A stretch of DNA of 64,000 nt. It comes from Escherichia coli (GTDB lineage: Bacteria; Pseudomonadota; Gammaproteobacteria; Enterobacterales; Enterobacteriaceae). The translations under genes and the position numbers were made by a program. The stretch's first letter is position 1, and each line of letters opens with the position of its first letter. This document shows, in pieces, positions 9,436 to 10,039 of the stretch. The DNA is taken from the NCBI RefSeq assembly GCF_003334785.1, contig NZ_QOWV01000004.1; one strand, 5' to 3'. The notes under the pieces are model-generated. The model ran no database searches. It saw nothing but the letters and a program-made list of their open reading frames with translations, and was not told the DNA's origin.

Positions 9436-9661
9436 CAGGTAAAACTGACCGATAAGCCGCTTTCTTTTGGGTATAGTGTCGTGGACAGTCATTCATCTTT
9501 CTGCCCCTCCAAAAGTAAAAACCCGCCGAAGCGGGTTTTTACGTAAAACAGGTGAAACTGACCGATAAGCCGCTTTCTTTTGGGTATAGTGTCGTGGACA
9601 GTCATTCATCTTTCTGCCCCTCCAAAAGCAAAAACCCGCCGAAGCGGGTTTTTACGTAAAT
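9436..9661. repeat. two tandem 113-bp direct repeats downstream of rnpB, each repeating the rnpB 3' end and a terminator hairpin
   Basis: Units begin at about 9436 and 9549 (period 113 bp); the third, at 9662, is the authentic rnpB 3' end. Each carries aaaaacccgccgaagcgggttttt. Confidence 0.85.
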
Positions 9662-9662
9662 C

Positions 9663-10039
9663 AGGTGAAACTGACCGATAAGCCGGGTTCTGTCGTGGAC
9701 AGTCATTCATCTAGGCCAGCAATCGCTCACTGGCTCAAGCAGCCTACCCGGGTTCAGTACGGGCCGTACCTTATGAACCCCTATTTGGCCTTGCTCCGGG
9801 TGGAGTTTACCGTGCCACGGACTGTTACCAGCCGCGCGGTGCGCTCTTACCGCACCCTTTCACCCTTACCTGATCCCGCTTGCGCGGGCCATCGGCGGTT
9901 TGCTCTCTGTTGCACTGGTCGTGGGTTTCCCCCCCAGGCGTTACCTGGCACCCTGCCCTATGGAGCCCGGACTTTCCTCCCCTCCGCCCGTCTCCCCCGA
10001 AGAGGACGACGACGAAGCGGCGACTGTCTGGTCAGCTTC
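9663..10039 (-). ncRNA. rnpB: RNase P RNA (M1 RNA)
   Basis: Reverse complement begins GAAGCTGACCAGACAGTCGCCGCTTCGTCGTCGTCCTCTTCGGGGGAGACGGGCGGAGGGGAGGAAAGTCCGGGC and ends CGGTCAGTTTCACCT, which I recognise as the 377-nt M1 RNA. Confidence 0.95.

Follow-up and report, generated by a model that had tools for sequence, protein, structure and literature searches.

rnpB, the gene for RNase P RNA, is followed in the analyzed window (a stretch of 64,000 nt of Escherichia coli DNA) by a tandem array of copies of its own 3′ end. With a probability of about 85%, we regard this array as a known tandem repeat of the rnpB tail and its terminator, which expands and contracts between strains and whose extra units are dispensable.

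A repeat known from E. coli K-12

In MG1655 (NC_000913.3, 3268000–3271500), TRF detects 3.5 copies of the same consensus unit between yhaC and rnpB, with a consensus identical to that of the window. Reed and Altman are said to have described in 1983 a 113-bp sequence in K-12 that is present in 3.5 copies and is homologous to the M1 RNA 3′ end, and the repeats reportedly contain terminators and small open reading frames. We take the array of the window and of MG1655 to be this “113 bp x 3.5” repeat. The array is thus already known, an attribution supported by the match of MG1655 in period and copy number; the sequence-only reading of the window had been silent on this long-described K-12 feature. 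The locus, the 113-bp consensus, the homology to the M1 RNA 3′ end and a terminator hairpin per unit, decayed in the third one (T3), are all shared, and so are the flanks of the array in MG1655, namely the BIME, the terminal relic and yhaC. The window differs from the K-12 repeat only in having one unit fewer (2.5 copies instead of 3.5), which is a strain polymorphism and leaves its membership in the K-12 repeat class intact.

Text searches of the literature turned up no paper on the repeat or on integration at rnpB. Relative to the 1983 picture, the additions are how copy numbers are distributed, the relic at the distal end and the inserted BIME, the occurrence of the insertion-type pseudo-unit in many genera, and the use of both the authentic and the pseudo-unit core by a family of islets. 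For E. coli biology itself the array carries little weight, being an old, documented curiosity, and strains without extra units do well.

Anatomy of the array

RNase P RNA (M1 RNA, 377 nt) is encoded on the minus strand at 10039..9663, where the Rfam model RF00010 (class A) matches completely (318.6 bits, full model 1–367); its length equals that annotated in MG1655. A consensus scan predicted a sigma-70-like promoter on the same strand at 10047–10075 (GTGACA, 17 nt, TATACT; 10/12 matches), which would drive rnpB, its position fitting a 5′ end at 10039. The convergent neighbor is a 395-aa ORF on the plus strand (7975..9162), annotated as yhaC in MG1655 and other genomes. Elsewhere in the window, SraG, the S15 leader, the rimP leader and two tRNAs (52979–53150, 53380–53494, 59776–59876, 59968–60041 and 63827–63910) pass the Rfam gathering threshold, as does a REP-derived naRNA4 match (55007–55077); these fit the pnp-rpsO-nusA/infB region, with nothing unusual.

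Between 9406 and 9685, TRF found a 113-bp period with 2.5 copies, 94% matches, no indels and a score of 504, and a self-comparison of 9380–9730 gave 77% identity at lag 113 compared to 35% at the next best lag, indicating that the repeat is real and far beyond chance. A repeat search likewise returned three in-register copies of 113 nt, so that the 113-bp periodicity proposed from the sequence was borne out by all three approaches. The rnpB 3′-terminal motif GGCTTATCGGTCAGTTTCACCT lies at 9663–9684 (the authentic copy), 9550–9571 and 9437–9458, with a spacing of exactly 113, in agreement with the unit starts given earlier (9662, 9549 and 9436). The last of these holds as the position of a unit motif but not as the limit of the array, which spans 9712..9386 on the strand of rnpB, beginning inside the rnpB 3′ end, and leaves a relic beyond the BIME at 9198–9257.

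The first unit (9612..9712, minus strand, 101 nt), delimited like the second by alignment and motif scan, comprises the authentic rnpB 3′ end (9663–9712), a linker, the terminator T1 and a spacer (9611–9629). It begins with AGATGAATGACTGTCCACGAC (J18/2 and the P2 3′ strand), followed by AGAACCCGG (the P4 strand) and CTTATCGGTCAGTTTCACCT (the P1 3′ strand, with the mature end at 9663), and after an 11-nt linker it closes with the hairpin AAAAACCCGC-TTCG-GCGGGTTTTT (T1) and the spacer GCTTTTGGAGGGGCAGAA. The Rfam match, the alignment and the motif scan agree that this copy, placed at 9662 by the sequence-only reading, is the authentic end of the gene. The second unit (9499..9611, minus strand, 113 nt) consists of a pseudo 3′ end, T2 and a spacer. 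Compared to the first, it carries 12 extra nt (ACTATACCCAAA) after GAC, and AGAAAGCGG replaces AGAACCCGG. In the third unit (9386..9498, minus strand, 113 nt, from alignment) the pseudo-end is intact and identical in type to that of the second, the terminator is degenerate and the distal 25–30 nt have diverged.

The motifs of the rnpB 3′ end and of the terminator thus recur in register, confirming that the repeats copy both. The copy is inexact, though: homology to the rnpB 3′ end is clear, but the 12-nt insertion ACTATACCCAAA sits between the P2 and P4 strands of the pseudo-units, and their P4 strand is mutated from CCCGG to AGCGG or CGCGG. A period of 113 bp therefore applies to the pseudo-units and not to the authentic unit of 101 nt, and the spacing of the GATGAATGACTG motif, 101 and then 113, reflects the presence of the insertion in the pseudo-units only. 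Units 2 and 3 lack the 5′ partner strands as well as the P4 strand; the insertion and the loss of P4 mark them as dead pseudo-ends. In the most economical scenario, an ancestral duplication would have included the terminal ∼50 nt of rnpB, the intrinsic terminator and a short stretch of spacer, and the copy would then have gained the 12-nt insertion and lost the P4 strand to become such a pseudo-end.

Two intact terminators and a decayed third

T1 and T2, both on the minus strand, are perfect hairpins. The core hairpin of T1 (9632–9651) folds with −22.1 kcal/mol (z = −4.0) and the T2 hairpin (9519–9538) with −23.5 kcal/mol (z = −4.6), and none of 200 shuffles was as stable. Both have the G+C-rich stem-loop and U tract of an intrinsic terminator (AAAAACCCGC-TTCG-GCGGGTTTTT, then GCTTTT). 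They are absent from a simple terminator scan, where the A/T-extended stem absorbs the T run, and were folded directly. The corresponding position of the third unit (T3, ∼9406–9425, minus strand) reads AATAAACCGTTCCGGCGGGTTTCAG and forms no stable hairpin (−9.3 kcal/mol, z = +0.58). The proposal of multiple consecutive terminators therefore holds for two of them, while the third has decayed.

In the window strain, T1 would end rnpB transcription, and the precursor would afterwards be trimmed with the involvement of RNase E, which takes part in M1 RNA maturation (PMC11251521). The rnpB T1 is among the natural intrinsic terminators that have been measured experimentally (PMC3643576); a literature search found no separate measurement of T2. 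As an intact hairpin, T2 could act as a fail-safe terminator, and since A5 and T5 border it on either side, the convergent yhaC transcript probably stops there as well. An arrangement of two consecutive strong intrinsic terminators after a highly transcribed stable RNA gene resembles the rrnB T1-T2 fail-safe pair. However, rrnB T1 and T2 are unrelated sequences, whereas the rnpB T2 is a duplicate of T1 inside a duplicated gene tail, and the number of rnpB terminators is polymorphic (1 to 5). The rnpB T1 is widely reused in synthetic biology, and T2 is a near-identical natural duplicate of it.

It had also been suggested that the number of units could affect formation of the rnpB 3′ end. This found no support: T1 or its long-loop variant lies immediately 3′ of rnpB in all island-free E. 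coli loci examined, whatever the number of units behind it, so that from the arrangement of the locus we see no basis for such an effect.

A comparison of the window hairpin at 9632–9651 with six further loci (L004, L005, L007, L010, L012 and L044) distinguished two terminator alleles in rnpB arrays, a tetraloop form (CCCGC-TTCG-GCGGG) and a long-loop form (CCCGCCAGCGTAAACCGGCGGG or CCCGTCAGTGCAAACTGGCGGG). Both recur across genera and sometimes share one array; in Kosakonia quasisacchari, the authentic T1 and the terminators of the pseudo-units are of different types.

The distal end: a BIME and a terminal relic

Beyond the repeats the sequence-only reading had placed a REP/BIME element, and a canonical pair is indeed found there: an inverted REP pair with a central IHF-like spacer at 9282..9381, with GCCTGATGCGCTACGCTTATCAGGCCTAC and GTAGGCAGGATAAGGCGTTCACGCCGCATCCGGC read directly from the sequence. 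The two halves are imperfect palindromes of ∼35 nt, and the region shows sub-threshold Rfam matches to the REP-derived naRNA4 and to ES036. A REP-containing query matched at least 175,016 places in 5,426 E. coli genomes (median at least 36 per genome), and as with other REP/BIME elements the pair is multi-copy in every E. coli genome. It is a separate element, inserted into the last unit toward the distal end of the array, and does not belong to the 113-bp repeat itself; the rnpB arrays of O157, of CE2050 and of some other lineages lack it.

Past the BIME, local alignment revealed a terminal relic on the minus strand (9198..9257) composed of a decayed terminator, a spacer and the truncated start of a next unit (AGATGAATAAATATCTACG), 36 nt from the yhaC stop codon. 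Its alignment score of 39 compares with 14.6 +/- 2.1 for shuffled sequences (maximum 23). The array ends with this piece in every E. coli locus inspected, and in genomes with no extra unit T1 runs straight into the terminal spacer and the truncated-A relic. This junction indicates that in all strains the relic is where the array truly ends.

Copy number varies among E. coli strains

Searching with the whole region by BLAST was confounded by abundant REP matches and by overlapping tandem pieces that were left unjoined. We therefore replaced it with a query of 700 bp of yhaC fused to 700 bp of rnpB/garK, for which the span of the joined match gives the intergenic length, and searched 5,426 complete E. 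coli genomes; 60 rows were sampled at even intervals, and both flanks were present in 44 of them. The yhaC-rnpB spans of these 44 genomes are discrete (1557, 1670, 1845, 1951/1959, 2064 and 2177 bp). Without a BIME, a span of 1557 bp corresponds to 0 extra units (O157:H7 strain 2159) and one of 1670–1678 bp to 1 extra unit (TW14588, CE2050). With the BIME, spans of ∼1845, 1951/1959, 2064 and ∼2177 bp correspond to 1 (STEC005), 2 (the window type and H5), 3 (MG1655) and 4 (M11) extra units. Counted from spans, with one representative per class checked in sequence and three genomes of ∼1841 bp assigned by span alone, 5 of the 44 genomes have 0 extra units, 12 have 1, 8 have 2, 16 have 3 and 2 have 4; the remaining genome has an IS1 insertion.

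Copy number thus varies between strains as predicted, with 0–4 extra units in the sequence-checked genomes and 3.5 copies in MG1655 versus 2.5 in the window. Two O157:H7 genomes differ by exactly one unit, indicating that the change is fast, and there is no extra unit in O157:H7 strain 2159 or in ST131, indicating that the extra units are dispensable. The most likely source of gains and losses of the 113-bp pseudo-unit is unequal homologous recombination between units, or else slippage during replication, and the changes would be neutral. As a hypervariable short tandem repeat, the array can confuse assembly and typing and can mimic extra rnpB fragments.

Two loci show further changes. The ST131 locus (L008, NZ_CP103710.1) carries the minimal array, consisting of T1 and the terminal relic, and there yhaB and yhaC are short pseudogene fragments and tdcR has an internal stop. 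In H41 (NZ_AP024205.1, strain TA8571) an IS1 lies between yhaC and rnpB, giving a span of 2847 bp.

Pseudo-units across genera and concerted evolution

One genome per species was scanned for two copies of the 12-mer CTTATCGGTCAG, taken from the P1 3′ strand of rnpB, at a spacing of 90–120 nt. This yielded 37 loci, of which 34 consist of repeated rnpB 3′ ends and belong to Klebsiella pneumoniae, Citrobacter, Enterobacter, Kosakonia, Cedecea, Lelliottia, Buttiauxella, Yokenella, Atlantibacter, Phytobacter, Superficieibacter, Huaxiibacter, Escherichia whittamii and others, so that the same type of pseudo-unit is found 3′ of rnpB in more than 15 named enterobacterial genera. The arrays hold 1 to 5 pseudo-units each, at periods between 105 and 128 nt, and in 8/8 loci checked by Rfam exactly one complete rnpB lies directly upstream of the array. 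The other three loci (L019, L040 and L043) are false positives, unrelated coding repeats with a chance occurrence of the 12-mer; in L040 and L043, from Campylobacterota MAGs, the tandem ∼130-nt repeats with CTTATCGGTCAG look like protein-coding modules. Enterobacterial-type arrays also turned up in assemblies labelled Chryseobacterium sp. 18061 (L028, with a full class-A rnpB of 321 bits) and Microvirga antarctica (L031, a 289-nt contig); the contigs concerned are probably contaminants.

Across all loci, the segment between GATGAATGACTGTCCAC (P2) and the 12-bp core is strictly bimodal: 41 segments are authentic (GACAGAACCCGG; one per locus, one of 13 nt) and 84 are of the pseudo type (GACGCTATACCCAAAAGAAAGCGG and relatives, 23–25 nt). 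The insertion-type pseudo-unit hence predates these genera. In none of the loci has a pseudo-unit been converted to the authentic P4 sequence, or the reverse, with flanks that are identical on both sides. Identity within an array is 96%, compared to 90% for the head, 80% for the insertion segment and 68% for linker, terminator and spacer between genomes, and the terminators of the pseudo-units usually match T1 of their own genome, both of which reflect concerted evolution. The recombination or slippage suggested above for gains and losses would also keep the units of one genome near-identical. The insertion-type pseudo-unit could thus offer a small, tractable case of concerted evolution beside an essential RNA gene.

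The same comparison bears on whether the units encode something. On the rnpB strand, each pseudo-unit has two ORFs of 38 aa that overlap, begin in GATGAATGAC (e.g., 9493–9609 and 9489–9605) and could specify small basic peptides. Yet these ORFs run through the terminator hairpin, the distance from ATG to core is 40, 41 or 42 between genera while the unit length varies from 105 to 128 nt, no promoter-like site was found in the array by consensus scan, and no RefSeq gene is annotated at the MG1655 array. With a frame left unconserved by 1-nt indels between genera, we rejected peptide coding, which retains only a negligible probability.

Alternatively, the pseudo-unit might be a functional RNA, either a small RNA made by read-through, with an A:B stem and the terminator hairpin, or a decoy whose targets would be RNase E, the C5 protein or M1 5′ strands and which would tune M1 RNA maturation. 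RNAalifold predicts a stem GAUGAAUGACUG : CGGUCAGUUUCA ahead of the terminator, and the higher identity of the insertion segment than of the tail between genera, together with the lack of conversion to the authentic P4 type, is what such a function could leave behind. However, all predicted pairs of the head are invariant, so that there is no covariation (term +0.16), the consensus scan that found no promoter in the array applies here as well, and the unit is wholly absent from major E. coli lineages. Besides RNase P, no Rfam family matched the units at threshold; the sub-threshold matches (rsmX, isrB, rnk leader and RsmY, E = 0.05 to 0.9) are terminator look-alikes. We therefore consider a functional RNA very improbable.

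Integration at the rnpB 3′ end

In the window each unit carries the 12-bp core CTTATCGGTCAG (9671..9682, with copies at 9558–9569 and 9445–9456; minus strand), which a comparison of attL and attR identified as a crossover site, and there is no islet. Such an islet is present in E. coli isolate 12 (L010; NZ_CM194533.1, 3038600–3088500), where 7.5 kb (locus positions 775–8278) separate rnpB from the array and encode a 486-aa tyrosine integrase, a YagK/YfjJ protein, a recombinase, flagellin and a fliC repressor. The integrase gene lies 224 nt from rnpB and its product matches the phrog_1 integrase (E = 2e-29). At attL, rnpB...GG is followed by CTTATCGGTCAG, CTTCAACT and the islet; at attR, the islet ends in CCTGA and is followed by CTTATCGGTCAG, TTTCACCT and then T1 and the pseudo-units. 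With the core as a direct repeat at both ends and an integrase beside rnpB, the rnpB 3′ end of this strain has served as an attB site. The islet re-supplies a variant rnpB 3′ end (GGTCAGCTTCAACT) and displaces the original one; the variant would change the G4-U wobble pair of P1 to G-C.

Judged by its sequence, this islet matches the flk genomic islet. PMC3378880 describes Orf486, the integrase of that islet, as recombining the direct repeats at both islet ends, which leads to unilateral flagellar phase variation, and cites Feng et al. 2008 for the islet, which is that of H3/H35/H36/H47/H53 strains of E. coli.

Integration is not confined to the authentic core. In Cedecea sulfonylureivorans (L013, 4574–7560), a 3-kb islet with flk-islet terminal sequences sits at the core of the first pseudo-unit, the single clear case of a pseudo-unit used as an integration site. 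This islet has no integrase and encodes a 511-aa protein and three small ORFs. The protein has a weak match, well short of the curated cutoff, to a T6SS antibacterial DNase effector (E = 3e-11); together, protein and ORFs may represent toxin and immunity cargo. On a Citrobacter freundii contig (L030), the right end of an islet abuts a pseudo-unit, and an integrase with 89% identity across the aligned C-terminal half (residues 254–486) is encoded ∼5.8 kb upstream of attR.

The rnpB 3′ end hence behaves as an integration hotspot of the tRNA type, for the flk flagellin islet as well as for the toxin-like islet of Cedecea. As in tRNA and tmRNA islands, the L010 islet combines a tyrosine integrase with crossover at a short core that belongs to the 3′ strand of a stable RNA gene's terminal helix, it re-supplies the 3′ end, and the displaced original end forms the distal direct repeat. 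In contrast to such islands, almost all genomes carry the tandem pseudo-ends without any integrase, and the pseudo-ends include terminator and spacer, which att repeats normally do not.

These observations raise the possibility that the pseudo-units are scars of rnpB-targeting islets (attR-type relics) or decoy attB sites for them, with the integrase driving gain and loss of units. Besides the crossover core in every unit, the use of the authentic core in L010 with its re-supplied 3′ end, that of the first pseudo-unit core in Cedecea and the attR next to a pseudo-unit in C. freundii would fit this idea, as would the persistence of the pseudo-type unit in so many genera. The P arm of the islet (AGATGCCTGACGTATGGTTGA...) is itself a diverged copy of the rnpB tail, but it differs from the head of the pseudo-unit and lacks the 12-nt insertion, and the rnpB-proximal (P′) end of the islet has no terminator, whereas the units also duplicate T1 and the spacer; an origin of the units from the P arm is accordingly not supported. 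Moreover, the integrase was found in only 19 of the 5,426 E. coli genomes and so cannot drive a copy-number variation that is seen everywhere, even within O157:H7. Ordinary tandem duplication is more parsimonious, and we consider an origin by integration quite unlikely.

Tandem duplication followed by neutral expansion and contraction, the reading we prefer, nevertheless sits uneasily with persistence in more than 15 genera and with zero conversion to the authentic P4 sequence. Selection might have kept the pseudo-unit across Enterobacteriaceae as an ancient module, either as a decoy landing pad that would spare the essential ribozyme gene from islets, or as a read-through RNA modulating M1 maturation, or as both; we regard this as unlikely. 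The findings that go beyond the 1983 picture make it modestly possible that the units have been kept for a purpose, but the evidence favors the ordinary explanation.

Further features of the L010 locus are of separate note. At the islet end beside rnpB, a conserved 10-bp long-range stem (CGTTGGTGTG...CACACCAACG) is present and a classical terminator is absent. In addition, T1 now lies 7.5 kb away from rnpB, and an IS30 interrupts the adjacent yhaC.
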